Of a stretch of 64,000 nt of DNA, positions 3,428-41,789 are shown in pieces. The DNA is from Patescibacteria group bacterium UBA3531 (lineage in GTDB: Bacteria; Patescibacteriota; Minisyncoccia; Phycocordibacterales; UBA3531), in assembly GCA_002376885.1 (NCBI GenBank), contig DFOW01000001.1:15381-79380 (forward strand), given 5' to 3'. A program made the translations under genes and the position numbers. The notes beneath the pieces are model-generated. The model had not been told where the DNA came from, did no database searches, and saw nothing but the letters and a program-made list of their open reading frames with translations. Numbering within the stretch: position 1 is the stretch's first letter; each line of letters starts with the position of its first letter.

Positions 3428-4549
3428 TTACTTGTGTGAACGCGTTATTCGAATAAGTTCTTCTGCGATTTGCTTACCTGCCTCGGGGTGGGCAAGAGAT
3501 TTTAAGGCGTCTCGCATAGCAACATATCCTCCTTGATTGTCAGTGATTCGTTTGAGTTCTGATAAAAATACTGCCTCAGTTAAGTTCTTTTCTTCTATCA
3601 CTGCTGCGCCTTTTCTTCGTGCCAAACTATAGGCGTTGGTTCTTTGATCTCGAGAGATCTCTTCTGGGATAGGAATCAAAATTGAAGGAATCCCCCAATG
3701 GGCGAACTCTAAAATACCAGACCCAGATCGGGAAACGATAAGCGTTGTGATCCCCGCCATTCGTCTCATTCCCTCTTCGTCTAGTGTTGGTACCGCTTTG
3801 TATCGTTCTTTTCCTTTAGCTTTCTCAAAAATAATACGAGCTCGTGCTTCCATATCTTTAAAATTCTTCTCTCCTGTTTGGTGGATTACCTGAAATTGTT
3901 CTACAAGCGTAGGGAGCATATCTAAAATAAAATCATTAATGCGTTGAGCTCCTTGGGAACCTCCTAATACACACAAAACAGGCCCTGGCTGGAATGAAAA
4001 GTGTTCAAACGAACCTTCTTTAATAGGGGTTCTGAGTGCTTCGCGCACTGGTTGCCCCGTAACAGCAGTTTTAGCTTCTGGGAAAAATTCTGCAGCCTCC
4101 TCCCACGATATTGCTACTCGACGAGCAAATTTGCCTGCCCATTTATTTACACGCCCAGGCACCGTGTCTGAATCATGAATCACAACAGGAATTGCTAAAA
4201 GACGTGCCGCAAAAAGTGTTGGGAAGCTTGCATACCCCCCTTTTCCAAAAATAACGTCGGGATAAATAATAAGGAGTCGGATGATGGCAACTAAAATACC
4301 AATGCTGGTTACAAAAAAATCTAAAATGTTTCGAGGGGAAAAATACGTACGAACCTTTCCCGCCGGAATTTTTATAAACTGAATTGAATGACTATCTAAC
4401 AGTTTTTGGTCGTAAGGAGTATTTGATAAAAAATAAAGAGAAAGATCGTTCAATCCTTCTTGTTCTTTTATTTTTTGTATTTCTTCAGCAACGGCAAGGA
4501 TGGGGTAAAAATGTCCTCCTGTGCCACCACCGGTAAATGCGATCTTCAT
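3428..4549 (-). CDS. murG: UDP-GlcNAc:undecaprenyl-PP-MurNAc-pentapeptide GlcNAc transferase
   Basis: N-terminus MKIAFTGGGTGGHFYPILAVAEE is the MurG G-loop. 373 aa. Neighbours are ftsW and mraY. Confidence 0.9.
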   Translation of the reverse strand: MKIAFTGGGTGGHFYPILAVAEEIQKIKEQEGLNDLSLYFLSNTPYDQKLLDSHSIQFIKIPAGKVRTYFSPRNILDFFVTSIGILVAIIRLLIIYPDVIFGKGGYASFPTLFAARLLAIPVVIHDSDTVPGRVNKWAGKFARRVAISWEEAAEFFPEAKTAVTGQPVREALRTPIKEGSFEHFSFQPGPVLCVLGGSQGAQRINDFILDMLPTLVEQFQVIHQTGEKNFKDMEARARIIFEKAKGKERYKAVPTLDEEGMRRMAGITTLIVSRSGSGILEFAHWGIPSILIPIPEEISRDQRTNAYSLARRKGAAVIEEKNLTEAVFLSELKRITDNQGGYVAMRDALKSLAHPEAGKQIAEELIRITRSHK

Positions 4550-4551
4550 TC

Positions 4552-5652
4552 TTAATGTTGATATTTGGAGATATTGAGGATGATCCCTACCTCAAGGAGC
4601 GTAAATAAAAGTGCTGTTCCGCCCTGACTCACAAATAAAATAGGGACTCCAGAGAGCGGAAACACTCCAAGCATCGCGCCAATATTCAAAAATGACTGCG
4701 ACACAACTAGTATAACAATTCCCAAAACAAACAGTCTACTAAAGGAATCGGGTGCCCGAGCAGCTATTTTAAACCCTAAAAGTGCGAATAAAAAGAAGAG
4801 TAGTATCAGTAAAAAGCTTCCAATAAATCCAGATTCTTCACCCCATACCGCAAAAATAGAGTCCCCGATTGGTTCAGGTAAGTAGTTAAATTTTTGAATA
4901 CTCTGCCCCAATCCCCTTCCGGAGACCCCTCCTGATCCAATAGCAATAAGCGATTGTCTAATTTGGTACCCCTCATTAAGCGGATCAACCAAGTTTGGAG
5001 TAATAAAGGTTAAGAGCCTATCTTTAACATAGGGCCTCGCAACAGCAAGTCCGGCGATTCCAAGAAGCATAATAAGAGCAATAATTACAAAATGCGCAAA
5101 GCGTCCTCCTGCTATAAAAAACATGGTGAGACCAGTAATTACAATCACCACAAAAAGTCCCGTATTTGGTTGTGCTAAAAGAAGCGCACCAATTAATCCA
5201 AACATAACAAGCATAGGAAGTGTTCCATACTTTAAATCTTTAATTTTGTCTCGCACAGCAGAAAGCCATGCCGAAAAATATAAAACAAAACCAAACTTTA
5301 AAAACTCTGCCGGCTGGAACGATAACGGCCCTAGGTTAATCCATCGCTTTGCACCACCAAGCTCAAGTCCAACCCCCGGGATAAATACAAGGAGTGTCGC
5401 AATAAGAGACAATATAAAAATTAAAAAAGCATACTGCTTCCAAACTTTATAATTTATTTTGGACGCAACAAAAAGTGCCAAAAGTCCACCAACTACTCCA
5501 ATCAATAATTGTTTTGCAAGAACCCAGGTAAAGTTAGCACCGTCGCGAACAAGAAGTCCTAAAGAAGCACTTACAAAAATACCAAGTCCAAATAAAAGTA
5601 GTAAAAGCGTGACAATGAGGAATGACCTATCGACATTGCTTCGTGCCCCCAT
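4552..5652 (-). CDS. ftsW: SEDS-family peptidoglycan glycosyltransferase FtsW/RodA
   Basis: Polytopic 10-TM protein of 366 aa between mraY and murG. SEDS-like loop motifs. Confidence 0.8.
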   Translation of the reverse strand: MGARSNVDRSFLIVTLLLLLFGLGIFVSASLGLLVRDGANFTWVLAKQLLIGVVGGLLALFVASKINYKVWKQYAFLIFILSLIATLLVFIPGVGLELGGAKRWINLGPLSFQPAEFLKFGFVLYFSAWLSAVRDKIKDLKYGTLPMLVMFGLIGALLLAQPNTGLFVVIVITGLTMFFIAGGRFAHFVIIALIMLLGIAGLAVARPYVKDRLLTFITPNLVDPLNEGYQIRQSLIAIGSGGVSGRGLGQSIQKFNYLPEPIGDSIFAVWGEESGFIGSFLLILLFFLFALLGFKIAARAPDSFSRLFVLGIVILVVSQSFLNIGAMLGVFPLSGVPILFVSQGGTALLFTLLEVGIILNISKYQH

Positions 5653-9862: not shown

Positions 9863-10084
9863 ATGGAGGGCCTTACCCCGAAAGAGATCGGTATTGCAAT
9901 CGCAGTCATTGTATGGGTTGCTTTCTGGATTACTCTCATCATCGTAATGTGGGGCCAGAGGTGCAGTGTATGCAATGAGAAGATCGCCATCCTTGAACCG
10001 CGCTACTTCGATGAGGAGGAGAAGCCCTACCACATCGACTGTGCAAGGGTACGTCGTTTCAAGGAGAAAGCCACCGGAGACTAA
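9863..10084 (+). CDS. small membrane protein with C-terminal Cys/His cluster (hypothetical; first gene of GC-rich island 1)
   Basis: Strong SD (AAAGGAGCACTC-ATG). One TM helix (IAIAVIVWVAFWITLIIVMW), then CSVC...HIDC. Local GC is clearly higher than the flanks. Confidence 0.4.
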   Translation: MEGLTPKEIGIAIAVIVWVAFWITLIIVMWGQRCSVCNEKIAILEPRYFDEEEKPYHIDCARVRRFKEKATGD

Positions 10085-10142
10085 ACCGGTGGTTCTCTTT
10101 TTTTGTATGTATGATATAACGCTATTTAGAAGGGGGGGTCCT

Positions 10143-10619
10143 TTGAATAGTAAAATCTTGTATGTATTGGTATTTCTTCTCATCTTCTTTTTCCCCGTTC
10201 ACGGGGCAACTGAAGAAGTCGAGATGGACACACCGACGAAGACCTACTACCGTTTTGCCACTCTCGGAAAGCAAGAGCGCTACTACGAGATGTGGCTCAT
10301 GACGGATCCGGATACCCGGTACGAGGCCATGGACCGGGTCAAGAGGGCGCTTGCAGCACGAGCGTTCGACCCCGAGCTCAGAGCCTTCATCATGGGTCTC
10401 CCGCCCGATGAGATCTTCGAGCTTCTTGTGTCCCAGTCAAGCATGGAGCTCATCGTCCTCTCCGAACAACAAGATGGGCCACGGGCATGGCTTGAGGTTC
10501 AGTCGCCAATGCGTGGTAAACCTCAAGGGTACTACGTCGTCAACAAGGTTGAGATGCGTCTCCTCAAAGAGAGGTGGCTCATCGTCTTCACCAACGTCAA
10601 GGTGGAAGACCATCACTAG
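10143..10619 (+). CDS. secreted hypothetical protein (GC-rich island 1)
   Basis: Probable TTG start after AGGGGGGG. Signal peptide LNSKILYVLVFLLIFFFPVHGATEE. A rho-independent terminator follows. The longer 9966 start in the ORF track overlaps the upstream gene and is unlikely. Confidence 0.4.
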   Translation: MNSKILYVLVFLLIFFFPVHGATEEVEMDTPTKTYYRFATLGKQERYYEMWLMTDPDTRYEAMDRVKRALAARAFDPELRAFIMGLPPDEIFELLVSQSSMELIVLSEQQDGPRAWLEVQSPMRGKPQGYYVVNKVEMRLLKERWLIVFTNVKVEDHH

Positions 10620-10624
10620 CCCAA

Positions 10625-10666
10625 CGGCCCGGTATCAAACGATACCGGGCCGGGTTTCTTTTTATA
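10625..10666 (+). terminator. rho-independent terminator
   Basis: Hairpin CCCGGTATC-AAACG-ATACCGGG followed by a T-run (GTTTCTTTTT) immediately after the stop codon. Confidence 0.6.
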
Positions 10667-10742
10667 TAAATTCTCAATTTTTCTACTATTGACCGAGACT
10701 AATTTAAATGTTATTATAAGTACAGACAAGGAGGTATTTAAC

Positions 10743-11162
10743 GTGAAGAATACGGCTCTGTATACCACCCTCATCGCTCTCTCCTCCATGCTTGTCTTTG
10801 CATGTACACCGCCCACCACTCGGGAATCGGTGACCGAGGAGATCACGGCTCGCGTTCTCACCAAGGGTGAGATCGAGAGTTTCGACCTGGGTGGAGCCCT
10901 CATCGGCTACATGATTGGCGAATCCATGTGCTGTGGCGGGGGGCTGTACGGCGGTTTCATCGGTGGCGTTGCTGCCGCCGATGACTGCGAGGTTCCCGTC
11001 ATGGTGGAGGGAGAAGCCCTCACCTTGAGCGCCCCTGATCGTGCCTGTCGCGACTCGGAGGAGAACCAGATCGTCACCGTCAACAAGACGACCACCACCG
11101 TTCGTGACCGAGAGACCGGCGAGGTCAAGAGCACTCGCATCCGCTACCGCTGGAAGCGATAA
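10743..11162 (+). CDS. lipoprotein with Gly-rich segment (hypothetical; GC-rich island 1)
   Basis: GTG start after AGGAGG. Signal plus lipobox LVFA-C, then CCGGGLYGGFIGGVAAADDCE. A terminator hairpin follows. Confidence 0.45.
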   Translation: MKNTALYTTLIALSSMLVFACTPPTTRESVTEEITARVLTKGEIESFDLGGALIGYMIGESMCCGGGLYGGFIGGVAAADDCEVPVMVEGEALTLSAPDRACRDSEENQIVTVNKTTTTVRDRETGEVKSTRIRYRWKR

Positions 11163-11171
11163 ACCCAAACC

Positions 11172-11212
11172 AGAGGGCCCCGATTCATTTCGGGGCCTAC
11201 TTTTTTGTATAC
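11172..11212 (+). terminator. rho-independent terminator
   Basis: GGCCCCGATTCATTTCGGGGCC hairpin followed by TACTTTTTTG. Confidence 0.6.
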
Positions 11213-11226
11213 ACCTCAACTTCAAA
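11200..11226. repeat. 27-bp direct repeat copy 1 (CTTTTTTGTATACACCTCAACTTCAAA) flanking the Doc cassette
   Basis: 25/27 identical to the copy at 11875-11901. On the minus strand it reads FEVEVYTKK*, a duplicated gene 3' end. Confidence 0.6.
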
Positions 11227-11719
11227 CACTTTTTGTAGTGAACTTTAGAAACTTTTCCACCTTCTTTTTAAGAGCTTCAAAATCAGGCTCGTGCGCAACA
11301 CTATCAGCAACAATAATAGATAAATTATACAAACCAAACTCTTCAGGATTAAAATCTCCAAAATCTTGATATTTATTAAAGCTCGGGAATAGTTCTTTTA
11401 CCAAGGAAGAATACTCTTCCTTGGTATGTTCAGAAAACTGAGCGTTATTAATAAGAAGAAATCCCAAGGTCGTAACAAGGGCAAGACGTTTATTTCCATT
11501 TTCAAAAAAATGTCCCTTGTTGATTTGAACCAATAAATACGCCGCCTTCTCTAGCAATGTTGGGTAATAAATGTCGTTTGTAACTTGAATAAGTACCCCC
11601 TTCAGTTTTTTGCATCCCTCCTCTTGAGAATCATAAGGAGGCATCGGCTCCTGTTTAGAGTAATGCCGATAAATGAGGTCAAAGAGGGTTGGGAGATCCT
11701 CTTCTTTAAAATAATTCAT
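11222..11719 (-). CDS. doc: Fic/Doc-family toxin (death-on-curing-like)
   Basis: Fic/Doc motif HFFENGNKRLAL (HxFx[D/N]GNKR). 165 aa. Its ATG lies 2 nt after the stop of the small upstream ORF. Confidence 0.7.
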   Translation of the reverse strand: MNYFKEEDLPTLFDLIYRHYSKQEPMPPYDSQEEGCKKLKGVLIQVTNDIYYPTLLEKAAYLLVQINKGHFFENGNKRLALVTTLGFLLINNAQFSEHTKEEYSSLVKELFPSFNKYQDFGDFNPEEFGLYNLSIIVADSVAHEPDFEALKKKVEKFLKFTTKSV

Positions 11720-11721
11720 AC

Positions 11722-11835
11722 TTAGCGATCAGCAAGACGCTCAAGAGCACGCCCCAAGCGTTTTTCTATGGTCTTTATAGCCTCTTCTACTCTTTGGGTA
11801 TGAGTATCCTTTTTTCTCTTGAAAATCTTAAACAT
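11722..11835 (-). CDS. small ORF immediately upstream of doc (37-42 aa; antitoxin by position only, no motif evidence)
   Basis: Unlisted minus-strand ORF MFKIFKRKKDTHTQRVEEAIKTIEKRLGRALERLADR*. An alternative ATG lies 15 nt upstream. Its stop is 2 nt from the doc ATG. No strong SD. Confidence 0.35.
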   Translation of the reverse strand: MFKIFKRKKDTHTQRVEEAIKTIEKRLGRALERLADR

Positions 11836-11862
11836 ATGTACAGTATACATTTTTCATTATTA

Positions 11863-12135
11863 TCAAACAAGATCATTTTTTGTATAAACCTCAACTTCAA
11901 ATTCTGGGAAGTAGTTGTAGATCTCAGGGAGATCAAACTTTTTTAAAATACTTTCTTTTTGCTCGCGCGCGAGCAAAAACTCAAAACTCCTCCGTATCAA
12001 ATCTTCTGGGACCACCTCCTCTCTCGTGAGTTTTTTATAATAGTCTTCTGTCAGCCCTACCGTATACACACTCCCCTCAACACCCACCTCAAACTCCGCG
12101 TTTGGGAATTCTTTTGTTTGCTTGATTTGTATCAT
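11863..12135 (-). CDS. hypothetical protein (C-terminus is the source of the 27-bp repeat)
   Basis: 90-aa ORF ending PEFEVEVYTKNDLV*. Its last codons are copy 2 of the direct repeat. Confidence 0.4.
   Translation of the reverse strand: MIQIKQTKEFPNAEFEVGVEGSVYTVGLTEDYYKKLTREEVVPEDLIRRSFEFLLAREQKESILKKFDLPEIYNYFPEFEVEVYTKNDLV
11875..11901. repeat. 27-bp direct repeat copy 2 (ATTTTTTGTATAAACCTCAACTTCAAA)
   Basis: Matches 11200-11226 at 25/27 positions. Lies inside the 3' end of CDS 11863..12135. Confidence 0.6.
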
Positions 12136-12353
12136 TCAAAAAAATAAACTAAATCCCGGTCATTTCCCGGGTTCTAGTTTACATTAGTGTGTATATGCTC
12201 TCTGGTCCGCGCTTGCTTTTTTCGCAACTTCCAAAAAGACCTTTTTTCTTTTGCGGGAAGGAGCCTTTCTAAAGAAATCAGAAAAGGCACTTGACGAAGG
12301 TTTTTCACTCTTCGCAATAGAAGCCCCCTTTCTAGGCCAAAATTCAAAAACAA

Positions 12354-13064
12354 TCATTTCAAAATATCGTGTAACTTATCACTAGAATACTCTTCTGGAA
12401 TATAGCTGTCAATCTTTGAAATATTCTCATGGTACTTAAAATCTGTTCCATCAATGTTCTTCACGATTAGATCCACTTGTAAATTGCCCACAAATTGGGC
12501 CTTTATCTTGTTTACGTTTTCCCTGGCCAAAAAATACTGTTCAATAAAGGCCTCCCTGGGAATAATCCTACCATCTTTAGAGGCCCTTATCTTCACAAAC
12601 TCCCAGGCTTGTATCGGATCCTGATACACATAAACTATAAAAACATCTCTGGACTTTTTAAGTGATCTACTAATGTTATCAACTGCTCTATTAAAATTGG
12701 TTAGAGTACCATCAAAAACAAAACTCTGCTTTTGTTTCAATGCAAGATCATGTATTTTATCTACAACAATAGAGGTAGCCCCCTGAAATAAAGAAGAATT
12801 CTTTCCGTTATATGCCTCAAACTCAACTCTTAATTCATCAGGATCTATATGCAAAACCAAGTCATTATTTGAGATTTTTTGAATCAAGGCCTTAGCAGAC
12901 TCTGTCTTTCCCGCCCCAGGAGAACCAGCCATAAACACTGAAACTGGGTGGTCCTCTGGTTTATATATGGAGGAATCCACAAGCCTTTTTGCTATTTCTT
13001 TTTTATTTTTTTGTGCAAATACAATAGCTTCAGCTTCTATATCGGCATCTGAAATATTAGACAT
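12354..13064 (-). CDS. zeta-toxin-like P-loop kinase (AAA_33/Zeta_toxin family)
   Basis: Walker A MAGSPGAGKTES. Then HIDPDELR and FVFDGTL motifs with zeta/PezT-like order and spacing. Preferred start is ATG 13064 (MSNISDADIE, GGGAGA upstream). The longer 13169 start overlaps the antitoxin gene. Confidence 0.6.
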   Translation of the reverse strand: MSNISDADIEAEAIVFAQKNKKEIAKRLVDSSIYKPEDHPVSVFMAGSPGAGKTESAKALIQKISNNDLVLHIDPDELRVEFEAYNGKNSSLFQGATSIVVDKIHDLALKQKQSFVFDGTLTNFNRAVDNISRSLKKSRDVFIVYVYQDPIQAWEFVKIRASKDGRIIPREAFIEQYFLARENVNKIKAQFVGNLQVDLIVKNIDGTDFKYHENISKIDSYIPEEYSSDKLHDILK

Positions 13065-13074
13065 TATTTTCCAT

Positions 13075-13260
13075 TTATTTCTCCCAATCTTCAATGATAA
13101 GTTTTTTGCCGGATTTTTTAACGGTGACTTTTTGGCGTTCTCGCCAGCCGAGTTCACGAACAACCTCAATAGGAATAGTCACCGAGATACTGTGTTTCCC
13201 TACTTTGGTTAATTTTCGTATTGTTTTGTCCCTCTTTTTTCTTCGTACCATATAAACCAT
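13075..13260 (-). CDS. AbrB/MazE/SpoVT-type (swapped-hairpin) antitoxin
   Basis: 61 aa. KVGKHSISVTIPIEVVRELGWRERQKVTV matches the AbrB/MazE fold signature. Ends 10 nt before the kinase start. Confidence 0.65.
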   Translation of the reverse strand: MVYMVRRKKRDKTIRKLTKVGKHSISVTIPIEVVRELGWRERQKVTVKKSGKKLIIEDWEK

Positions 13261-13294: not shown

Positions 13295-13358
13295 ATACTA
13301 CTCCTTTGCCCTTATTTTTCAAACAAGAACGCCCCGCAAAGGAAACGTCCCTGCGGAG

Positions 13359-13622
13359 CTATGTCCTACTGCTGGCTTCACTCCACAAAGCTAGCAGACG
13401 TTGCTGTTTCTTCCCTTCAAACTTCTCTGCGAGTGCTTCTACTGCATCAGCAAGATCCGTCATCTCGCATTCGGTCTGCATGGCGTATCCAAGACATGTA
13501 AGAGCCCATGTCTCTGGATCGTCATCAGGGTCGAGTTCTAGGGAGTTGATGATCGCTTCCCCCAAGGCACGAAAGAACTCCTCTTCGTCAACTTCCACGA
13601 TGTCGACTTCTCCAGACTCCAT
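13359..13622 (-). CDS. acidic hypothetical protein (GC-rich island 2)
   Basis: 87 aa, strongly acidic (VEVDEEEFF...DPDDDPE). RBS GAAGGGAGG. GC-rich codon usage unlike the backbone. Confidence 0.35.
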   Translation of the reverse strand: MESGEVDIVEVDEEEFFRALGEAIINSLELDPDDDPETWALTCLGYAMQTECEMTDLADAVEALAEKFEGKKQQRLLALWSEASSRT

Positions 13623-13718
13623 CTTTTCAGCCTCCCTTCTAGTTTTACCCTACCTTATTTATTTTTATTTTTCAAATTAAACAAGAGCAGCCCGGAACTT
13701 GCGTTCCGGGCTGTACCC

Positions 13719-14111
13719 CTAGTAGATGAAATCTTCAGGCTTCTCCTTCTGTGGCTCGAGGCCGTACCAGCGAAGAACTTCCTTGTTACGGGCAGTGTGC
13801 GTGAGTCCGAAGAGTTCTTCGGCGATCCGCAGCTGATCCCCAGCATCCGTATGGTACGGATGCTGATTGCAGTCGATGCGAATCAAAAGGTCAGGAACAA
13901 TGCCGAACATGGGGCCATGCTTGTAGATCCTGAGCTCAAATCCTAAAACGTTCGATACCAGTTGACACGGAAGCTCCAGGCGTCTGGTGATCTCGTCCAC
14001 TCGCGCCCACTCTTCCGTCCGAAGCTGGTGGCAGCCCCATCCACCCTCGTTATGGATCTTCCTTTCCATCTCCTTGAGCCACGCGATGTCGGCTTCTCTG
14101 CAATCTGTCAT
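13719..14111 (-). CDS. hypothetical protein (GC-rich island 2)
   Basis: 130-aa ORF. A terminator-like hairpin (CAGCCCGGAAC..GTTCCGGGCTG) lies downstream. No motif recognised. Confidence 0.35.
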   Translation of the reverse strand: MTDCREADIAWLKEMERKIHNEGGWGCHQLRTEEWARVDEITRRLELPCQLVSNVLGFELRIYKHGPMFGIVPDLLIRIDCNQHPYHTDAGDQLRIAEELFGLTHTARNKEVLRWYGLEPQKEKPEDFIY

Positions 14112-14205
14112 GGCTAAAACACCTCCATTCCCAACATTACCCTTTTCATTATATTTTTCAAACCATATGAAAGGTCCGGCGCTCAGCGCCGGACCTGGGC
14201 TCTTT

Positions 14206-14787
14206 TCAGCCCTTGAGTTCTTCCAAATACGTCTCCCAAAGAGGCAACCAGTCTTCCCTACTCACACTAAGAAGGATCTCATCGTAGTAGGTTCCGTTCC
14301 GGAAATGCCAACCATCTCTTCGTCCCACTTCCTTGTACCCACACCCCATAAGGTACCGATGACTTCGCTCGTTGAAGCCAATCACTGCGGCCCCCACCTG
14401 TCGCAGATTGAGTGTAAGGAATGCAAAGGCAAGCTGGAGCATCTTGGCATCCGTACCGTACCCCTTCCCCCAATATTCCTTCTCACCGATGATGGTTCCC
14501 GAAGCGGCTGTCCGATTGATCGGATGGATTCGGTGAAGACCGATATTCCCGATCAGCTTCTTTCCTTTGAGTGTCTCGATTGCAAAGACAATCTGCTCGT
14601 CAGAGCCCTTGCCGAGCCTGTCGAACCAGGCCTCTTCCTGCGATCGCATCACTGGATTGTTTGATCCAACGAACTGTGTCACCTCTGGATCGTTCAACCA
14701 CTTAAGAAAGTGACTCAGATCGTGCCTCTTGTCGAGCGGACGGAGCCGAACAAGTCTGCCTTCGCGAATCACGTGATTGTCTTCCAT
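14206..14787 (-). CDS. GNAT-family N-acetyltransferase (RimJ/RimL-like)
   Basis: Preferred start MEDNHV at 14787 with SD GAGGAG. GNAT motif A-like region (QVGAAVIGFNERSHRYLMGCGYKEVG) and general RimL-like architecture. The N-terminal 130 codons of the track ORF look non-coding (R/S/P-rich). Confidence 0.65.
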   Translation of the reverse strand: MEDNHVIREGRLVRLRPLDKRHDLSHFLKWLNDPEVTQFVGSNNPVMRSQEEAWFDRLGKGSDEQIVFAIETLKGKKLIGNIGLHRIHPINRTAASGTIIGEKEYWGKGYGTDAKMLQLAFAFLTLNLRQVGAAVIGFNERSHRYLMGCGYKEVGRRDGWHFRNGTYYDEILLSVSREDWLPLWETYLEELKG

Positions 14788-14844
14788 GTTCTCCTCACAT
14801 TGTTTTGGAATTATTAAAAGAACTTCCATTTCGAGAAAGGTGGG

Positions 14845-14876
14845 TAAAAAAACACCCTGACGCTTTCTCGCCAGGG
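14845..14876 (-). terminator. rho-independent terminator (minus strand) upstream of the GNAT gene
   Basis: Minus strand: GCCCUGGCG-AGAAAG-CGUCAGGG followed by UGUUUUUUUACCC. Confidence 0.55.
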
Positions 14877-15118
14877 CATTCCTCAGACTAGTGTTGTTAG
14901 CTTTTATATAACCATAAGAGTAAGAGAATCTTGACCAGGCGAAACAGCCTCCTGTGCTTCGGTGCACACGAGATATGAAATCCCCGCATTCATTTTTCGC
15001 AAAAATTCTCTTTGCATAATTAAAAAATACCCTGTTTAGGGTATTTGTCAAGAGGACAGCCCCGGTCGCAACATTAACGACCGGGGCTGTGTCAACTTGA
15101 GAAGGCGCGGTAGAGTGC

Positions 15119-15376
15119 CTATTGGGTCTCGGCCGGATTCTCCGTATAGACGAAGATCTCCTGGATCGAGGCTCCACTCCTGATAGTCACCCTGAGCCCC
15201 GCCTGGATAGGCGTGAACTTGATCCGTCGAGGGGCACCGCGTGCCTTCTTGATGATCCCCAAGACGACTTTCGAAGTATAGGGGCACTTCTATGCTGTGT
15301 CTACGACACCTACTGCGGCATTGATGGTGGTTGTGTGGCTTCCGGCCACTTTGCCACCGGCACGATGTTTCGGCAT
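15119..15376 (-). pseudogene. bL27-like small ORF interrupted by an in-frame TAG (possible pseudogene or read-through gene)
   Basis: SD AAGAGGA 6 nt before the ATG. MPKHRAGGKVAGSHTTT...TA-TAG-KCPYTSKVVLGIIKKARGAPRRIKFTP.... Weak resemblance to bL27 (AHKKAGG N-terminus; V.LAG.IIVRQRGTKF core). Total read-through length 85 aa equals bL27. Two hairpin terminators downstream at 15030-15091. Confidence 0.25.
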
Positions 15377-15462
15377 AATTCCTCTTTTACCGGTGGTTTT
15401 ACCTGCCTATTTAATATAATAATTTAAAATAAGTGTCAAGAATATAGATTTCTGTATCCCTA

Positions 15463-15491
15463 TTGACAAAATAGTACTTCCCTACTATTAT
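15463..15491 (+). promoter_or_regulatory. sigma-70-like promoter TTGACA-N17-TATTAT
   Basis: Consensus -35 and near-consensus -10 with a 17-nt spacer in an AT-rich intergenic region, about 215 nt upstream of the ABC exporter start. Confidence 0.55.
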
Positions 15492-15649
15492 CCCAATATT
15501 ATGAATATATACCGAACAAAAACACTGTTCATGCGAACCACGCAATTTATGTGTGGGCGTCTTGGCGTAGTCATTTCTACCGTACACCGTTTTTGTGCCA
15601 GGCAATATGTTCTGAGGGCTTAAATTCTCATCTCTAATCTGAGCGTTTG

Positions 15650-15686
15650 AAACATCTTGTCTGGCTGACAAGATGTTTTTGTTCTT
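15650..15686 (+). terminator. intrinsic terminator/attenuator inside the 5' leader of the ABC exporter gene
   Basis: Perfect 11-bp stem AAACATCTTGTC-TGGCTG-ACAAGATGTTT followed by TTGTTCTTTC, ending about 20 nt before the SD GAGAGGG and the ATG at 15707. Confidence 0.6.
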
Positions 15687-15706
15687 TCACAACGAGAGGG
15701 TTAACC

Positions 15707-17548
15707 ATGGAAAAGCGCTTGCGTAAGTACTGCGACGATCTTGCTGAAACGCGGGAAGTGATTCAGTGGATCAAGAGTGAATTTGTCACTCAAGAGGCAT
15801 GGGCATGGGCAAAGAAGATGTTCTTTGTTTTTGCTATCATGATCGGCCTTGACGCACTCCAGCCGTTTGCGGTTCGGTATGTGTTTGATGGGCTCGTTTC
15901 GGGCAACTCTTCATGGGTTATCTTTGGCTTCGTTGGTTTTCTTGTGTGCTTTACGGCACAGAAGGTTACTGACTATCTGAAGAACACCTATCGGGAGTGG
16001 TTCATTGGTCTTAACATTGCAACCATCGATCGTCGTATTACCGAGCTTTTCTTCGAGAAGTCGCTTGGTCAATACGTTACCCATAGTTCTCTTTTGAACG
16101 TGGCGACGATGGACCGCGGGAGGAGCAGTATCAACAACATTCAGGGTACGCTCGTTTTTTACGGGACCTCTTCCTTTTTGTACATGACACTGTCTTGGGT
16201 TGCTGTTGCTCTCTTGAGTCCGCTCTCGGGCGCGCTCTTTTTGCTAGTTGCAACCATCTACCTTCTTTCGGGTTTTTATCTGAACAGTCGTGTAGAAACG
16301 GAGTGTCACGAAATTGAGGAAGATTTTAGGCGTCTTCGTCGTCACCGCTTTGAACGGTGGGAAAAGCTTGAGCGTGTTGCGCTCACTGGAAAGAAGCATC
16401 ACGAGCTTTCCTTCATGACGGAGCGCTTTGACGACATCCTTTCCAAAGACCGAGCATTTTGGTTGGGATTTATTCGTCACTGTGGTTTACGTGAAGGAGT
16501 GAACATTCTGGTGCTTGCGCTCATCTTTGGGATCGGCGCATGGAATGTGTGGACCGGAGTGTGGAGTGTGGGACTTTTGTACCCACTCTACAGTTTGTCG
16601 TCTCGCATCAGTCATAACATGTGGCAGATTGGCGACATTTATCTGGATCTTTCACGTGAGGTTCCTCGTGTTCGCTCAATGATGCGTGCACTCTCGCTCA
16701 CACCAGAAGTGACTGACGCCCCGAACGCGCAAGAGCTTGACCTTACACGTGCTCCGGAAATTCGGTTTGAGGGGGTCTCGCACCGATACCCAGCAGAAGA
16801 CACACGCACTGCAAACGATGGTGTACACACTCTGAAGAATGTCTCGTTTGAGATTGGGCAGGGTGAGAAGCTTGCTGTCATTGGGCCAAGCGGCGCTGGT
16901 AAAACCAGCATTGCAAAACTCCTTTTGCGGTACATGGATCCTGAAGAGGGTGCCATTACTGTAAACGGTATCAGCCTGAAAGACATTGCGCTTTCTTCGT
17001 GGATGCGTCATGTGGGAGTAATTGCCCAAGACCCGCAAGTGTTCGACAACACGTTGCGTTACAACATTACGTATGGTCTTTCCGAAGATCATCGGGAGGA
17101 AATCAAAGACGAAGACGTATGGCATTTGATGAAGCTTCTTCATATCGATTTTGGAAAGCGACTCACTGCAGGACTTGAAACCCGAGTCGGCAGAAGCGGT
17201 ATGAAGCTTTCGGGTGGAGAAGCACAACGCCTTATGATTGGAGCGGCGGCAATCAAGCGCCCCCACTTCATGATCATTGATGAGGCAACCAGCAGTCTCG
17301 ATTCTACAACCGAGAAGGAGGTCCAGAAGGGATTGGCAGATGTGCTTTCGGGTGATGTTGGTGCTCTTGTGATTGCGCATCGGCTTTCAACCGTACGAGA
17401 CCTGTGTGATAAGTTCATGGTACTGAAGCGCAGTACCGACGCGAACACCACTCCGCAGGTTGAAGCAATTGCCGGGAGCTTTGAGGAGCTCTACGAACTC
17501 TCTCCTACGTTCAGGCGTCTATGTGATGACCAAGGGGTCATCATTTAG
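15707..17548 (+). CDS. ABC transporter, fused permease/ATP-binding exporter (type I half-transporter)
   Basis: N-terminal 6-TM domain. Walker A GPSGAGKTS, ABC signature LSGGEAQRL, Walker B MIIDEATSSLD and H-loop. Preferred start MEKRLRKY with SD. The track start at 15647 lies inside the terminator hairpin. Confidence 0.85.
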   Translation: MEKRLRKYCDDLAETREVIQWIKSEFVTQEAWAWAKKMFFVFAIMIGLDALQPFAVRYVFDGLVSGNSSWVIFGFVGFLVCFTAQKVTDYLKNTYREWFIGLNIATIDRRITELFFEKSLGQYVTHSSLLNVATMDRGRSSINNIQGTLVFYGTSSFLYMTLSWVAVALLSPLSGALFLLVATIYLLSGFYLNSRVETECHEIEEDFRRLRRHRFERWEKLERVALTGKKHHELSFMTERFDDILSKDRAFWLGFIRHCGLREGVNILVLALIFGIGAWNVWTGVWSVGLLYPLYSLSSRISHNMWQIGDIYLDLSREVPRVRSMMRALSLTPEVTDAPNAQELDLTRAPEIRFEGVSHRYPAEDTRTANDGVHTLKNVSFEIGQGEKLAVIGPSGAGKTSIAKLLLRYMDPEEGAITVNGISLKDIALSSWMRHVGVIAQDPQVFDNTLRYNITYGLSEDHREEIKDEDVWHLMKLLHIDFGKRLTAGLETRVGRSGMKLSGGEAQRLMIGAAAIKRPHFMIIDEATSSLDSTTEKEVQKGLADVLSGDVGALVIAHRLSTVRDLCDKFMVLKRSTDANTTPQVEAIAGSFEELYELSPTFRRLCDDQGVII

Positions 17549-17562
17549 CTGCCTTAACAGCA

Positions 17563-17600
17563 ACCGCCCTGGGTTTTTACCCAGGGCGGTTTTGTTTTTA
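17563..17600. terminator. bidirectional rho-independent terminator between convergent ABC and NUDIX genes
   Basis: ACCGCCCTGGG-TTTTT-ACCCAGGGCGGT, flanked by an A-run and a T-run. Confidence 0.65.
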
Positions 17601-18122
17601 TAGATATTTAAGATGTTCCCTAAAGAATCTTGCATCCCGCACGATATTAAAAGTTGTATTATAAAAACTTATTTCCCTTTTTTTGACTTTTTCTTCTTGC
17701 GAAGATAAAACCTTTAAGGCTTCACCCTTTTGTATCCATACAGGCTTTAGATTATTTTCTTTTTCTTCCTCAGTCCGGGTATCTTTGGGTAGTTCCTTCA
17801 AAACCTTAACAAAAAAGCAAGTTGTAACACTCTCTCTTTCTTCCTTGTTTCTGAACTCATGAGCTGTTCCAATTTTTTTTACTATTTTTACTCCAACATT
17901 CAACTCTTCATCACACTCACGCATAATCTCTTTTTCTAAATCATCAGACTCCGCTCCTCCTCCAGCAAGAAGGTAGCATCCATGTTTTGGGTTGGTCACA
18001 AAACCATATTCTCCCCGGCTATTAATAACAATAGCTTTTACTGTTTGCCTATTTTTATACTTGTTAGGAATTGAGTAATTAGAATCTGGATCTATGTCCT
18101 TATCTGTGAGGGTAAAGTCCAT
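17598..18122 (-). CDS. NUDIX hydrolase
   Basis: Nudix box GGGAESDDLEKEIMRECDEELNV (GX5EX7REUXEEXGU). Confidence 0.75.
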   Translation of the reverse strand: MDFTLTDKDIDPDSNYSIPNKYKNRQTVKAIVINSRGEYGFVTNPKHGCYLLAGGGAESDDLEKEIMRECDEELNVGVKIVKKIGTAHEFRNKEERESVTTCFFVKVLKELPKDTRTEEEKENNLKPVWIQKGEALKVLSSQEEKVKKREISFYNTTFNIVRDARFFREHLKYL

Positions 18123-33682: not shown

Positions 33683-34363
33683 TTAGTCTTTGTTATATAA
33701 TTCTTCTGCTCTCCGATGGAGCCACTTGGAAGATTCTATCTCGTTTAAAGGAGTGTGTTCAGAAAAATAGGTGTGTTCTTTGTCCCACCGAATGGTTCTT
33801 TTAGACCATGGTAACCACCATGGGCCTTTAATTTTAATTGTCGTTAACAGTATTGGTGCTTTTGATTTGTAATGTATATGTTGTGGGCCTCGTTTAAATT
33901 CTCCAATTCCATCTTTTTTATGGACTCTCCCTTCGGCAAAAATCATTACTGCCTCACCCTTTTGTAGTCTGTCGACAGTTGATGCCGTTTTGTCTTCAAT
34001 AGTAAGAACCCCGTCTTTATCGCGAGGAGGAAGGATTAATACACCATTTGGCCAATAAATAAATGGATAGGTGATCACCCAATAAATTATTTTTAAAAAC
34101 CAGTGCCGAGGGCTTTGTGTCGCTAAAAAACGAATGGGTAGTATGCTCCAGTAATATTTAAAAGGAAGACTTTGAACAAACAACCAAGGGTCAATAACTG
34201 TCTTATGGTTCCCTACAATCAAAAGGGGTCGTGTTTTAATATCTTCGTATCGGGGCAAAACAACCTTTGTGTACAAAATAGTTTTTAAAACAGGATGAGC
34301 AACGAGCCATTCAAAAACCTGCCAGGAAATGACAATAAAACGTTTAATTTTTGATTCTTTCAT
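33683..34363 (-). CDS. 1-acyl-sn-glycerol-3-phosphate acyltransferase family (PlsC-like), AT-rich copy
   Basis: HX4D motif VGNHKTVIDP and FAEGRV (FPEGTR-like) motif. Confidence 0.7.
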   Translation of the reverse strand: MKESKIKRFIVISWQVFEWLVAHPVLKTILYTKVVLPRYEDIKTRPLLIVGNHKTVIDPWLFVQSLPFKYYWSILPIRFLATQSPRHWFLKIIYWVITYPFIYWPNGVLILPPRDKDGVLTIEDKTASTVDRLQKGEAVMIFAEGRVHKKDGIGEFKRGPQHIHYKSKAPILLTTIKIKGPWWLPWSKRTIRWDKEHTYFSEHTPLNEIESSKWLHRRAEELYNKD

Positions 34364-34431
34364 CTAGGGTAAGTATATAAAAGATGGATAAATGAAACGG
34401 ACGGAGGTTTGTGTAGCTGTGGAAACTACAC

Positions 34432-35091
34432 CTAACTCCGTCCGTGTGCCTCTGCCTCCCGATAGAGCGCAGAGAGCCGCGCATGAATGAACTCGACGCC
34501 CTCTTCTCCCGACATGCCCGAAGGCACGACAAGAGGAGCGATGTCCCAGTTCATCACGACTCGCCACCTGAAGGCGCTCACCTTCTGGCGATAGAGCGCA
34601 ACGAGCCAGATGGACGCACCGCTCTGCCGATGAACCGCCACGATCCCCTTCCGAAGCGGGCCAACCCCAGGACCCTTCCAGATCTTCCCTTCGGGATAGA
34701 TGAGGACGGACGTCTTCTGCTCGACGAGAGCTTCGACCGCGCCAGGGATTGCATGCTGCTTGGGGATGATCATGTTCCTCCGGTAGAACCACCGGTAGAA
34801 CTGACGGAACGGCGGCCACCAGAAGAGCTCCTTCCACGTGAACCTCTCCTTGGCGACGAACCGAATCGGCGCGATGGACTTGAAGCTTGCAAGGACAAGC
34901 GTCAGGACCGCGAAGGGGTGGTCGAGAGTCGACCGGTGGGTGGACCCGATGATCCGAGGCTCGCTCCCAAGAGCCGGGCCCGGATCGTTCAAGACCGTCA
35001 CCTTGTGGAAGGGAGCCAGAAGCCGGGGAAGCCACCAGTGTTCCTTCACCTGGAACCTGGCCGTCTCGCTAAGCTGTGTCTTGATCGACAT
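34432..35091 (-). CDS. PlsC-like acyltransferase, GC-rich paralog
   Basis: HX4D THRSTLDHP, PEG motif IYPEGKIWKG. SD AAGGAGG. Extended -10 (TGGTATAGT) upstream. GC-rich codon usage. Confidence 0.65.
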   Translation of the reverse strand: MSIKTQLSETARFQVKEHWWLPRLLAPFHKVTVLNDPGPALGSEPRIIGSTHRSTLDHPFAVLTLVLASFKSIAPIRFVAKERFTWKELFWWPPFRQFYRWFYRRNMIIPKQHAIPGAVEALVEQKTSVLIYPEGKIWKGPGVGPLRKGIVAVHRQSGASIWLVALYRQKVSAFRWRVVMNWDIAPLVVPSGMSGEEGVEFIHARLSALYREAEAHGRS

Positions 35092-35157
35092 GCCAGATTC
35101 CTCCTTAGGGTTTGGATGAACTTACTGACAAGCACTATACCACATATTTATAAAAAA

Positions 35158-35212
35158 GGAAAGGCCCTGCGGGTAATCACATTGATGTACACCCACAGGG
35201 CCCTTTTTGGCA
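35158..35212. terminator. bidirectional hairpin terminator between MMPL stop and PlsC2 promoter
   Basis: GGCCCTG-26 nt loop-CAGGGCC, flanked by AAAAAAGG and CTTTTTGG. Confidence 0.5.
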
Positions 35213-35228
35213 GTTGCCTGCCCTTCTC

Positions 35229-37559
35229 CTACGCCGCCTCGCCGTAGACCGGCCGGATCCGCGACCGCATCTCCTGGATCCTGCGTTCGAGGTCTCGCCT
35301 GAAGAACGTCTCCGGCGCAACCCGAACGATCGACGGAACGATCACGAGCGTTGCGACGAGACTCGCCACCATCGCGAGCGCGAGGAAGAACCCCAACACC
35401 CGAATGGGAACGAACGCCGAGAGCACGAGCGCGATGAACGCCAGGTTCGAACAGCAATCGAAGACGATCGGCATGCCGACGTCCTTGATGGCCACCCGAA
35501 GCGAGTTGTTCACGTTGCCAAAACTTCTCACCAGAAGACCCGTGCGGGTCACCAGGTGGATGTAGAAGTCGATAGCGGTCGCACCCACGATCAGCGTGAT
35601 AGCGAAGTTCGCAATGTCGATCGTGATGCCGAAGGCACCCATGAGGGCATAGACCAGCCCGTTGGCAAACGTCACGGGGACGAGGGCCAAGAAGGCGAGC
35701 CGCATGCTCCCCAAGAACCACCAGCACACGAGGACGAGAAGGATGGTCAGGAGCCCGTTGCTCCGTGCCCACGACTCGCCCAAGACATCGATCATCGCCG
35801 CCCATTCGAGGAACTCGCCGGTGATCCACAGGGAACCACCAAGGTCGTGTTCCTCCCGATACTCCCGGAGGGAGTCGCGGATGGCGTTGATCCGGTCGCT
35901 CGAGAACGCGTAGATGAACGGGTTCAAGACGAGGTACTCCTCGCCGTCATCCCGAAACTCGGACAGGACGTCCGGGTTGTCGAAGAGCGCGAACTGAGCG
36001 ATCGCATTCTCGTCGTTCGGGATCCGCTCGTCTGCCAGGTCCCCGTCGCGGAGCTCGCGGTTCATGCGAGCCACGCGCTCGTGGAGACCCGTACAGAAGG
36101 TGACGTCGGCGTGAGCCGACGCGTACCCGCAGACCTCGCGTGCCGTCTTGAGACATTCGGGGTCGTTCGTGCTCGTCTCGCACTTCAGCATGACCTGCAC
36201 GAACATCGTACCCCCGAAGTACTTCTCGAGGATGTCGAAGCCGTCGCGAGCCTTCTCCCCCTTCGGGATGAAGTGCGGCGGGTTCGAGCTCACGTTGACC
36301 TCTCTGATGAAGGGGGCCGCAATGATTACGGTCACCGCAACACCAGCGAGGACTCGTCTGCGTGAGTTGCTGAAGAGCGACATCTGGTGCGCCTTCTGCA
36401 AGAACCGCGCAAGCCGACTCCTGACGCGTTTCGACCGAATGGTCTCCGGCGTCGTGATGAGAGACGGAATGAACCAGACCGCTGCGGGAATGACCAGGAG
36501 GCTCGTAGCCGCACCGGTCAGGATCCCCACGATGGCGAACCAGCCGAAGTCGTGATGCGCCTGGACCGGGACACCCACCACCAGGGAAACGAATCCCAAG
36601 GTGCTGGTGAATGCCGCGGCCCGAACGGGACGGCTGACCAGCTCGAACGGGCTCTTGATGGCCTGCTCGAGGCCTTCGTAGTTCCTGTACGACCGCAGCA
36701 TGCACTCGAACACGTGGTACGCGTGCGATGACACGATTGCGAACAGGAGCACCGGAAGGCTTGAAGTCAGCACGTTCTGGAGGACACCGAAGTGCCCCAC
36801 CACACCGAGCGCCCCGACGATCGAGGTCGGGATCACGACGAAGACAGTGAAGACGGCTGCACGCCACCCAAGCACCGTCGACATGGTGATCCACAAGAAC
36901 ACGAGCGCCACTGCACCGAGCATCGCGAACTCTCGATTCGCGAGGATCTCGAACCAGCGGTTCTGGTAGTGGTTGGCGTACGGACCCGCACGGAAGGTGG
37001 CACCCTCCGTAAACGAATCTGCGAGACGCTCGAGTTCGTCGAAGACCTCGTTCTGCCCCTTCTTTCCGTCGAGACGGAAGACCATGAGGCTTGCGTAGCT
37101 GTCGGTCGAGACGATGCGCCCGTAGAGGAGCGGATCGCTTTCGATCTTTGCCCGAAGCGCACGCTCCTCTTCGCGCGTGGCGGGGACCTCTCGAATGAGA
37201 TCACCCACGCGCACCTCGCCCTCGCCCACGTTCTCGATGTAGTCGTAGCCCGTAAGCGAATGGACCACGGCTCCCGGCGCCAGGATCGAGGAGGTCTCGA
37301 CCTCGGCGTGGAGTGCCATGATCTTCTGGATGCAGCTGGCCGAGTAGGAACCCATGGGGCCCTTGCACTCGAGTCCGATGACCGCGTAGTCGTAGTCGAC
37401 GAAGACGCGATCGAACGCTGCGTTCTCGATGGCCTGGGGATGATCCGACTCGAGGTGACCCTCGAGAACCGGCGTCATCTCCGGACTGATCCCCAGAAGG
37501 GATACGGCCCAAAAGACCACGAGAGCGGTCAGAATGAAACCTGCCGTCTTTTTGCTCAC
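35229..37559 (-). CDS. RND-superfamily MMPL-type exporter (two 6-TM bundles)
   Basis: 776 aa. Duplicated 6-TM MMPL/SSD-like modules with large periplasmic loops. GTG start with SD AAAGGAG. GC-rich. Confidence 0.7.
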   Translation of the reverse strand: MSKKTAGFILTALVVFWAVSLLGISPEMTPVLEGHLESDHPQAIENAAFDRVFVDYDYAVIGLECKGPMGSYSASCIQKIMALHAEVETSSILAPGAVVHSLTGYDYIENVGEGEVRVGDLIREVPATREEERALRAKIESDPLLYGRIVSTDSYASLMVFRLDGKKGQNEVFDELERLADSFTEGATFRAGPYANHYQNRWFEILANREFAMLGAVALVFLWITMSTVLGWRAAVFTVFVVIPTSIVGALGVVGHFGVLQNVLTSSLPVLLFAIVSSHAYHVFECMLRSYRNYEGLEQAIKSPFELVSRPVRAAAFTSTLGFVSLVVGVPVQAHHDFGWFAIVGILTGAATSLLVIPAAVWFIPSLITTPETIRSKRVRSRLARFLQKAHQMSLFSNSRRRVLAGVAVTVIIAAPFIREVNVSSNPPHFIPKGEKARDGFDILEKYFGGTMFVQVMLKCETSTNDPECLKTAREVCGYASAHADVTFCTGLHERVARMNRELRDGDLADERIPNDENAIAQFALFDNPDVLSEFRDDGEEYLVLNPFIYAFSSDRINAIRDSLREYREEHDLGGSLWITGEFLEWAAMIDVLGESWARSNGLLTILLVLVCWWFLGSMRLAFLALVPVTFANGLVYALMGAFGITIDIANFAITLIVGATAIDFYIHLVTRTGLLVRSFGNVNNSLRVAIKDVGMPIVFDCCSNLAFIALVLSAFVPIRVLGFFLALAMVASLVATLVIVPSIVRVAPETFFRRDLERRIQEMRSRIRPVYGEAA

Positions 37560-37675
37560 CGTTTGCTCCTTTGGCGGACTTTCAAAGAACGCCTAAAAAG
37601 GTATGAATCTAGGTTAAAAGTGCCATAAATATATAAAAAAGTCAATAGTTATCGTGCCCCTGTGGATAGAGAAAG

Positions 37676-37712
37676 AGAAAAGGCGGCACGCGCGCGTGCC
37701 GCCTTCCTTGTC
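37676..37712 (-). terminator. rho-independent terminator after the LolA-like gene
   Basis: Minus sense: GGCGGCACGCG-CG-CGTGCCGCC followed by UUUUCUCUUUCUC. Confidence 0.6.
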
Positions 37713-37715
37713 CCC

Positions 37716-38540: not shown

Positions 38541-38659
38541 GGCTCACCTCCTTGGAGTTTCGAAGATCCATGCGCGAAATGCGCATATCCAGTATTAAAA
38601 TAACACGTAAATTTTATTTGTCAATTAAACTGCCCTCCTTTAGGCCTTTTAAAGAATGC

Positions 38660-39454: not shown

Positions 39455-39518
39455 TATCTAAAAAAAATTTGGGGAGGGGCGGTGGTGTCATCATACGACG
39501 ACACCACCGCACATGCCC

Positions 39519-40277: not shown

Positions 40278-40299
40278 GAGAGTATCCTCCTTCTAAAGA

Positions 40300-40575: not shown

Positions 40576-40579
40576 GAAA

Positions 40580-40609
40580 GTATAAACACCAACAGTTTAA
40601 CTGTCAATA
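40580..40609 (-). promoter_or_regulatory. sigma-70-like promoter TTGACA-N18-TATACT driving the T-box leader, overlapped by the 13-bp palindrome ACAGTTTAACTGT
   Basis: Minus sense: CTGTATTGACAGTTAAACTGTTGGTGTTTATACTTTC. The palindrome spans the -35 and spacer region. Confidence 0.5.
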
Positions 40610-40620
40610 CAGAAAAGCAG

Positions 40621-40652
40621 GGGGCGCAGACCTTGACGCCTGCGCCCCCACT
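40621..40652 (-). terminator. rho-independent terminator of the trpS2/CM-MTase operon
   Basis: Minus sense: GGGGGCGCAG-GCGUCAAGGU-CUGCGCCCCC followed by UGCUUUUCUGU. Confidence 0.65.
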
Positions 40653-40654
40653 TT

Positions 40655-41776: not shown

Positions 41777-41789
41777 CTCTTGGATCCTT

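Follow-up and report, generated by a model that had tools for sequence, protein, structure and literature searches.

The 64,000-nucleotide stretch of DNA analyzed here, referred to as the window, comes from Patescibacteria group bacterium UBA3531 (contig DFOW01000001.1) and carries on its minus strand a Doc-type toxin gene preceded by a small open reading frame (ORF). This pair occupies about 650 bp within the last 27–28 nt of a gene coding for a protein of 90 amino acids (aa), the end of which is present twice. Sequence comparison gives good support to the view that the pair is a recombinase-less, horizontally mobile type II toxin-antitoxin cassette, with a promoter of its own and a leaderless 37-aa antitoxin-like ORF to which Doc is translationally coupled. 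Its insertion was probably of the type called "long target duplication" and guided by homology, and the combined explanation that we favor, as a rather probable one, is that such a cassette was placed by an insertion of this kind. The locus combines a known type of toxin with an unannotated family of putative mini-antitoxins and an insertion mode, recurring in Patescibacteria, that has so far been described for restriction-modification systems and is here extended to toxin-antitoxin pairs. How chromosomal toxin-antitoxin modules without mobility genes of their own spread is poorly understood, as is gene gain by the streamlined genomes of Patescibacteria. The four independent insertions of a toxin-antitoxin pair alone at duplicated gene ends, two of which have allele-like copies, point to a concrete and testable route, namely homology-guided long-target-duplication insertion in naturally competent cells.

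The locus is organized as follows, in window coordinates:

11175–11198, both strands: bidirectional terminator hairpin (z = −3.8 on each strand) of a convergent lipoprotein gene (10743–11162, plus strand) of high guanine-plus-cytosine (GC) content

11197–11226, minus strand: repeat copy 1, an orphan 3′-terminal remnant of the 90-aa gene, reading FEVEVYTKK-stop, with the TAG stop at 11197–11199 (sequence, repeat search)

11208–11921, minus strand: segment shared with contig L007, with ~20 nt from the end of the 90-aa gene, then the promoter, small ORF and Doc between the two repeats (blastn, tblastx, alignment)

11222–11719, minus strand: Doc-type Fic toxin of 165 aa with the motif HFFENGNKR (Pfam, NCBIfam and PDB matches)

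11722–11835 (to 11850), minus strand: small partner ORF, a putative mini-antitoxin of 37 aa (from the second ATG, 11835) or 42 aa (from 11850), with the C-terminus LGRALERLADR-stop (conserved upstream of Doc)

11842–11870, minus strand: predicted cassette promoter, with a −35-like TTGTTT (11865–11870), a 17-nt spacer and a −10 box TATACT (11842–11847) 6 nt before the ATG at 11835 (position of a TANNNT hexamer; TATACT kept in L007)

11875–11901, minus strand: repeat copy 2, where the 90-aa gene has its functional 3′ end (sequence, repeat search)

11863–12135, minus strand: 90-aa target gene, of an uncharacterized small-protein family with the conserved C-terminus ...YFPEFExE(I/V) (55 homologues)

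Read on the plus strand, copy 1 (CTTTTTTGTATACACCTCAACTTCAAA, 11200–11226) and copy 2 (ATTTTTTGTATAAACCTCAACTTCAAA, 11875–11901) are direct repeats identical at 25 of 27 positions and lie 675 nt apart. Scanning the 64-kb window with up to three mismatches returned these two copies only, where dinucleotide shuffles expect 0.00. The cassette and target genes are all on the minus strand, and the repeats, of 26–28 nt in the window and 29 nt in L007, bracket only the small ORF and Doc, without a mobility gene. The frame of copy 1 is offset by one from that of Doc, the TGA of which (11222–11224) lies inside the repeat. At the other end, the 90-aa ORF terminates in ...FEVEVYTKNDLV-stop; the NDLV-stop tail of the window copy 2 reflects a 1-nt deletion relative to both L007 and the orphan copy, from which the ancestral gene end can be read as ...FEVEVYTKK-stop. 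The AAAAAAG run of copy 1 is the T-tract of the convergent lipoprotein terminator on the plus strand, hence the orphan sits in the original context of the target gene, and the terminator marks the original downstream boundary of that gene. The preliminary description of this locus, made from the sequence alone, had reported the 25/27 direct repeats around the two-gene unit and the orphan FEVEVYTKK-stop beside the Doc stop, both of which hold. Its assignment of copy 2 to the end of the 90-aa gene is also correct, with the amendment that the present tail is the product of the deletion. It had further named two observations that would speak against it, a repeat common across the genome and relatives lacking Doc that also have both copies; the repeat is not a widespread motif in the window, and no Doc-less relative with both copies was found.

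A transposon, insertion sequence or miniature inverted-repeat transposable element was considered and rejected, given that the repeat search found no terminal inverted repeats at the cassette ends and that the duplications (25–57 nt across the lineages described below) are variable rather than short and of fixed length. An integron cassette was rejected as well: the repeat and its flanks have no secondary structure (fold z = −0.16 and +0.65), neither an attC-like fold nor a hairpin, there are two copies only and thus no array, and there is no integrase among the called genes within 10 kb. No Rfam family reached its gathering score anywhere in the window.

The closest Doc homologue, at 87% identity, lies on contig L007. 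When this contig was compared with the whole window by blastn and tblastx, only positions 11208–11921 proved common (85% identity over 715 nt), and both L007 flanks consist of unrelated high-GC genes. The finding of a 715-bp unit with both repeats in an otherwise unrelated contig argues for a mobile cassette. The junction positions are identical in the two loci. The L007 repeat copies are identical to each other over 29 nt (ATTTGAAGTTGAGGTTTATATGAAGAAAT) and are set apart from each of the window copies by the same three positions, such that the copies co-vary within each locus, TATATGAAGAAAT occurring twice in L007 and TATACAAAAAA twice in the window. In both loci the gene-attached copy runs into TGA and then TCTTGTTTG..., which is cassette sequence, the stop (TGATCTTGTTTG...) being part of the shared cassette. 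The orphan stops and what follows them differ, with TAG and a hairpin in the window and TAA and another hairpin in L007; these unrelated terminators are host sequence. The target gene in L007 is reduced to a remnant of ~15–30 codons (tblastn to residues 59–86, E = 0.003).

These observations bear on the explanation that requires no mobility, in which the repeat would have arisen by local duplication or would serve a function, for example as part of an operator or terminator, and the cassette would be ancestral. That copy 1 supplies the T-tract of the lipoprotein terminator is compatible with it. We nonetheless disfavor it as barely credible, given that the cassette with its repeats stands in an unrelated context in L007, that homologues of the 90-aa gene occur without the cassette in contigs L005 and L006, and that other lineages have wholly different repeats, which match their own neighboring genes.

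The 400 nt upstream of each cassette were compared with the 345 nt downstream. Flanking repeats that duplicate the end of a neighboring gene or gene-like sequence were obtained in the following cases:

Window: score 47, z 14, 26–27 nt; end of the 90-aa gene

L007: score 58, z 20, 29 nt; end of the 90-aa gene (remnant)

L063: score 54, z 21, 57 nt; end of the upstream Beta-Casp/RMMBL (RNase J-like) gene, IVPDFGQTWEITESSIKKI-stop versus orphan IVPDFDRSWEITKDSKKEL...

L075–77: score 35, z 6.5–8, 25–33 nt; end of a convergent XerC/D-like gene, VHKRFHSRSM-stop versus orphan AHKRFHSRSK-stop

L078–79: score 45, z 12–14, 54 nt; tRNA-3′-half-like sequence just after tRNA-Gln

The cassettes thus score 35–58, and among 659 random segments of ~660 bp drawn from the same loci and the window, one reached at least 31 and none at least 45. 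In all bracketed lineages the copies enclose nothing but the toxin-antitoxin pair, and the DNA next to the orphan is that originally downstream of the gene. Spacing in the four cases is 0–48 nt past the Doc stop and 23–112 nt, largely promoter, before the start of the small ORF. Four mutually unrelated targets are used by one cassette family: the 90-aa gene, the RNase J-like gene, the XerC/D-like gene and the tRNA-like sequence. A further repeat in L064 (24–26 nt; 3813–3838 and 4656–4679; score 31) was borderline and was not counted, its upstream copy lying in the promoter region and the other copy 146 nt downstream of Doc.

Two of these loci have features of their own. In L079 (560–734, and the same in L078) the target resembles a tRNA 3′ half, with a T-arm (GGTTCGATCC) and the acceptor strand GCTCCCC, and a matching 5′ half (GGGGAGTGGTGTAATCGG...) lies upstream of the complete tRNA-Gln (612–682), as if a tRNA-like gene had been split by another tRNA; ARAGORN and Rfam call tRNA-Gln only in L078–79. 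In L075–L077 (for instance L076, 1873–2151, minus strand), a 92-aa ORF comprising only the C-terminal domain of GMP synthase (Pfam E = 7.9e-9) adjoins the orphan XerC/D-like end and may be another truncated gene remnant in this hotspot.

The recurrence of the pair also bears on whether it is the relic of a larger, integrase-bearing island that sat at the gene end and later lost everything except the addictive toxin-antitoxin pair. In its favor, toxin-antitoxin pairs resist deletion, and the region between AspRS and ScpA that holds the cassette is variable and of mosaic GC content, with a Zeta/MazE-like pair next door. This origin is very improbable in our view, since the pair is flush with both repeats in four independent cases, a precision of trimming unlikely to be repeated, and the 715-bp unit recurs in L007.

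In L076 the two repeat copies, read in frame, differ by four synonymous changes, including AGC versus TCG for serine and TAG versus TAA for the stop, and by two non-synonymous ones; in L063 there are three synonymous and nine non-synonymous differences, the synonymous ones falling across a conserved WEIT segment. The copies match perfectly over a core of 17 nt in L063, 15–16 nt in L076 and 14 nt in the window, located at the gene-proximal end. The resemblance of the L076 and L063 copies to diverged functional alleles, combined with a gene-proximal perfect core, supports homology-guided insertion over fill-in duplication. The latter would be a true target-site duplication, in which an enzyme would make cuts staggered by ~27–60 nt and ligation and gap filling follow, so that both copies are derived from the host and identical at birth. 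We regard this as decidedly unlikely. It would account for the identical 29-nt copies of L007, for the window copies, which differ at only one or two positions, and for a repeat length that varies by event (25–57 nt), as in the long target duplications of restriction-modification systems (PMC2853133). It fits poorly with the AGC/TCG serine codons, the two further synonymous changes and the TAG/TAA stops of L076, and with the in-frame L063 copies, synonymous across WEIT, which look like two selected alleles rather than the result of neutral decay; moreover, no candidate enzyme is present.

The mechanism that we favor, homology-guided insertion, would proceed as follows. The cassette would take along a copied 3′ end of the gene behind which it sat. 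In a new genome, recombination within the short perfect core (14–17 nt) at the end of the orthologous gene would give that gene a donor-type end, and the end native to the recipient would become an orphan. This orphan could in turn provide the next transfer with a portable homology arm on the right-hand side, for instance when naturally competent Patescibacteria take up DNA. Natural competence is a trait of Saccharibacteria (PMC10633639), and restriction-modification units have been found inserted with long target duplications, some over the 3′ ends of genes and mostly in naturally competent species (PMC2853133, PMC3874152).

The same geometry is open to another interpretation, site-specific integration, in which a circular cassette with an attP mimicking the gene end would be integrated at attB by a tyrosine or serine recombinase acting in trans, the repeats being attL and attR. 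This is a serious rival, although we consider it unlikely. No recombinase is encoded in the cassette, none is found among the called genes within 10 kb on either side, and of the 61 Pfam families matched by the 55 other window ORFs, the 25 most frequent include none. One cassette family with four unrelated targets, and a repeat with neither dyad symmetry nor a fold, are likewise hard to reconcile with it. On the other hand, a gene-end mimic on the gene with the displaced original end as an orphan is precisely the arrangement of classic 3′-end integrations, L063 and L076 show a perfect core followed by diverged arms, the window and L007 share exact junction positions, and one case involves a tRNA-like 3′ half. 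One cassette also adjoins a XerC/D-like gene, but this gene, in L075–77, is a target in a housekeeping context and not cargo. The preliminary description had proposed a site-specific, att-like insertion. The inserted mobile cassette is borne out by L007 and its two repeats; the site-specific part is not, in view of the missing recombinase, the unstructured repeat, the four unrelated targets and the allele-like copies in two cases, which agree with homology-guided insertion no less well than with an att site.

Several observations weigh against a homology-guided insertion of an antitoxin-bearing mobile cassette. The window copies are too alike to separate fill-in duplication from homeologous recombination, and thirteen to fourteen of the 18 cassette lineages have no detectable flanking repeat; these could be older insertions or have used other insertion routes. 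The close cassette lineage has only two members in the databases searched, and the L007 unit may have moved with a gene fragment instead of by targeting the 90-aa gene. The empty site, which the preliminary description had proposed to seek in relatives, was not found. Exact-protein look-ups with the 90-aa protein, Doc and the 170-aa neighbor returned contigs of the same strain only, all with the flanking genes and the cassette. DNA-pattern scans with TTTGAAGTTGAGGTNTATA gave 46 loci in metagenome_contigs and 5 in viral_contigs, which are chance matches without extended homology. These look-ups and scans recovered no empty-site genome for a single alignment of the repeat; in an empty site, the 90-aa gene joined to the terminator would read ...CCAGAATTTGAAGTTGAGGTGTATACAAAAAAGTAGGCCCCGAAATGAATCGGGG, and a circle or excision junction would read ...ACTACAAAAAGTG-TTTGAAGTTGAGGT-...-TGATCTTGTTTGATAA. 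Finally, hhalign of the small ORF against Phd of phage P1 (with a Phd sequence entered by hand) found no similarity, at a probability of 0.05.

A possible but doubtful generalization is that the Doc cassettes of Patescibacteria form a class of recombinase-free mobile elements in which the duplicated 3′ end would be a transfer device rather than a passive scar. After DNA uptake, the orphan copy would serve as a homology arm for the recipient's homologous recombination behind the orthologous gene of any genome, and the cassette would be kept by addiction through the new mini-antitoxin.

The identification of the toxin, already made in the preliminary description, holds: the 165-aa protein scores 32.5 bits against Pfam Fic PF02661 (cut-off 24, E = 1.6e-7) and 41.2 bits against NCBIfam TIGR01550 DOC_P1 (cut-off 38.65), and its closest solved structure is the Doc of E. 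faecalis (9vzc). Residues H70, F72, N74, G75, N76, K77 and R78 are invariant across 37 homologues, and the Doc homologues come from Patescibacteria. Doc-type Fic proteins with the motif HxFx(D/N)(A/G)NKR phosphorylate EF-Tu, which halts translation; from this knowledge of the family, the toxin of the cassette would phosphorylate EF-Tu and block translation. HFFENGNKR fits this motif (worded as in PMC13034048) with E at position 4 and N at position 5, and with K where the Fic motif has its second G. The possibility that the TGA of Doc is read through under genetic code 25 was considered and dropped, as TGA ends Doc in both the window and L007 and read-through would enter the terminator hairpin.

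The small ORF stops 2 nt before the Doc ATG and its peptide ends in ...KRLGRALERLADR. Public gene calls treat it inconsistently, and it was absent from the ORF track on which the preliminary description was based. A homologous ORF of 36–59 aa was found immediately upstream of Doc in 19/19 loci, that is, 13 genome loci obtained with a Doc profile, four further metagenome lineages, L007 and the window. The position of its stop varies between ~20 nt ahead of the Doc start and an overlap with Doc, the two being within 8 nt of each other in most loci (n = 19). The 19 ORFs share the C-terminal motif ...[RK]xGRAxxRL[AS][DE]R-stop. On this conservation, the ORF of 37–42 aa that the preliminary description had placed before Doc is a genuine, conserved partner of the toxin, and the small upstream gene conserved with its toxin gene and translationally coupled to it in 19/19 loci is what is expected of type II toxin-antitoxin systems in general.

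No strong Shine-Dalgarno sequence had been seen upstream of this ORF, which proved correct and is explained by the predicted leaderless transcript: the −10 box lies 6 nt before the ATG, and in 13/19 loci a TANNNT hexamer precedes the small-ORF ATG by exactly 6 nt. Placement of TATACT before the second ATG favors the 37-aa form. The promoter is absent from the list produced by a consensus scan owing to its weak −35.

The small ORF belongs to no Pfam, NCBIfam (E ≤ 0.1) or PADLOC family, and a PDB search with a profile of 14 homologues returned nothing at E ≤ 10. With its 37–42 aa and no family match, it does not have the N-terminal DNA-binding fold of Phd/YefM. Phd binds Doc via its C-terminal 22–28 residues only (PMC13034048). 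From synteny, coupling and size, we infer that this peptide acts as a minimal antitoxin, which binds Doc but has no DNA-binding domain. The conserved helix ...GRAxxRLxDR at its C-terminus would bind and neutralize Doc as these residues of Phd do, and loss of the cassette would release the toxin, making the module addictive. The unannotated family of 36–59-aa Doc partners, predicted to be translated from leaderless mRNAs, could thus represent a minimal Doc-neutralizing peptide.

Compared with Phd-Doc of phage P1 and of E. faecalis (PDB 9VZC), the toxin likewise passes the Doc/Fic hidden Markov model cut-offs and has the Doc motif, the antitoxin gene is likewise upstream of and coupled to the toxin gene, and the Doc-binding part of Phd (22–28 residues, PMC13034048) is about as long as the conserved part of the small ORF. 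In contrast to Phd, the partner here is a protein of only 36–59 aa that lacks a DNA-binding domain, whether Phd/YefM, AbrB or another, and does not detectably resemble Phd, a leaderless mRNA is predicted, and Doc, at ~165 aa, has a C-terminal extension past the 122-position DOC_P1 model.

The closest known phenomenon is the "insertion with long target duplication" described for units of restriction-modification genes (Nobusato 2000; Furuta, Abe and Kobayashi 2010, PMC2853133). In both situations only a selfish addiction module lies between long, variable, genome-unique direct repeats, mobility genes are absent, some repeats extend over the 3′ end of the gene next to them, and the host group is naturally competent (PMC10633639); repeats flanking the selfish unit alone, without a mobility gene, were found in the window and in three other lineages. 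The cargo differs, being a toxin-antitoxin pair here and a restriction-modification system there, and the repeats here are shorter (25–57 nt), those of the window and L007 falling under the 30-bp threshold of PMC2853133 whereas those of L063 (57 nt) and L079 (54 nt) exceed it. The copies are diverged alleles in two cases here and near-identical there.

Integrase-mediated islands at the 3′ ends of tRNA or protein genes, including integrase-less satellites, also duplicate the gene end, orphan the displaced original end and preserve gene function. The cassette differs from them in having no integrase, a size of only ~0.65 kb and several unrelated targets for one cargo family. Integron toxin-antitoxin cassettes, for example those of the Vibrio superintegron, are likewise small promoter-bearing units that move without a recombinase of their own, but the cassette described here has no attC-like imperfect palindrome, no array and no IntI, and its repeats are the coding ends of housekeeping genes.

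The target of the cassette in the window is itself poorly characterized. The 55 matches to the 90-aa protein are mostly unnamed metagenome sequences, one being labeled Patescibacteria, and share the invariant pattern FEFLL...E..IL..F....YF..E. The protein has no Pfam, NCBIfam or PADLOC match, and its confident AlphaFold2 model (pLDDT 85, a per-residue confidence score), which contains three strands and helices, gave no significant fold match in the PDB. A 74-aa variant of the gene (P0001) reflects a difference in gene calling, the DNA being 100% identical. By exact-protein look-up, the locus was found on contigs from marine (Tara) metagenomes, up to 245 kb long, where its neighbors are housekeeping genes (several aminoacyl-tRNA synthetases together with MraY, FtsW, MurG and ScpAB). 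Between AspRS and ScpA is a variable region in which the cassette is accompanied by a Zeta-toxin/MazE-like pair. In the relative L005, the 90-aa homologue is found a few genes downstream of AspRS among other neighbors; neither this homologue nor that of L006 is accompanied by the cassette.

Directly upstream, at 12354–13260 on the minus strand, is this second toxin-antitoxin-like pair, in which a Zeta-toxin domain (Pfam E = 3.7e-37, Walker A GSPGAGKT) is preceded by a 61-aa MazE/AbrB-like ORF (13075–13260) scoring 23.4 bits, just below the cut-off of 24.7. A 57-aa ORF (12184–12357) overlaps the Zeta stop by 4 nt. On the other side of the cassette, public gene calls include an antisense ORF of 171–173 aa (10704–11225, minus strand) that starts inside repeat copy 1, and miss the plus-strand lipoprotein gene at 10743–11162, which has the ribosome-binding site aaggagg, a GTG start and the signal/lipobox ...LVFAC.

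The window has a GC content of ~39–40% with islands of 50–62%, the high-GC blocks being located at 10000–11160, 13300–18000 and 34000–43000, and in L007 at 1–600 and 1430–2200. The low-GC Doc cassette adjoins high-GC genes in both the window and L007. The same GC junctions are present in several independent assemblies, which argues that they are not an assembly chimera. Near-identical terminator hairpins (core CCCGGTATCAnnCGATACCGGG) follow otherwise unrelated high-GC genes at 10626–10651 in the window and 1430–1457 in L007, which hints at a common source or at a repeated element shared by the high-GC DNA.

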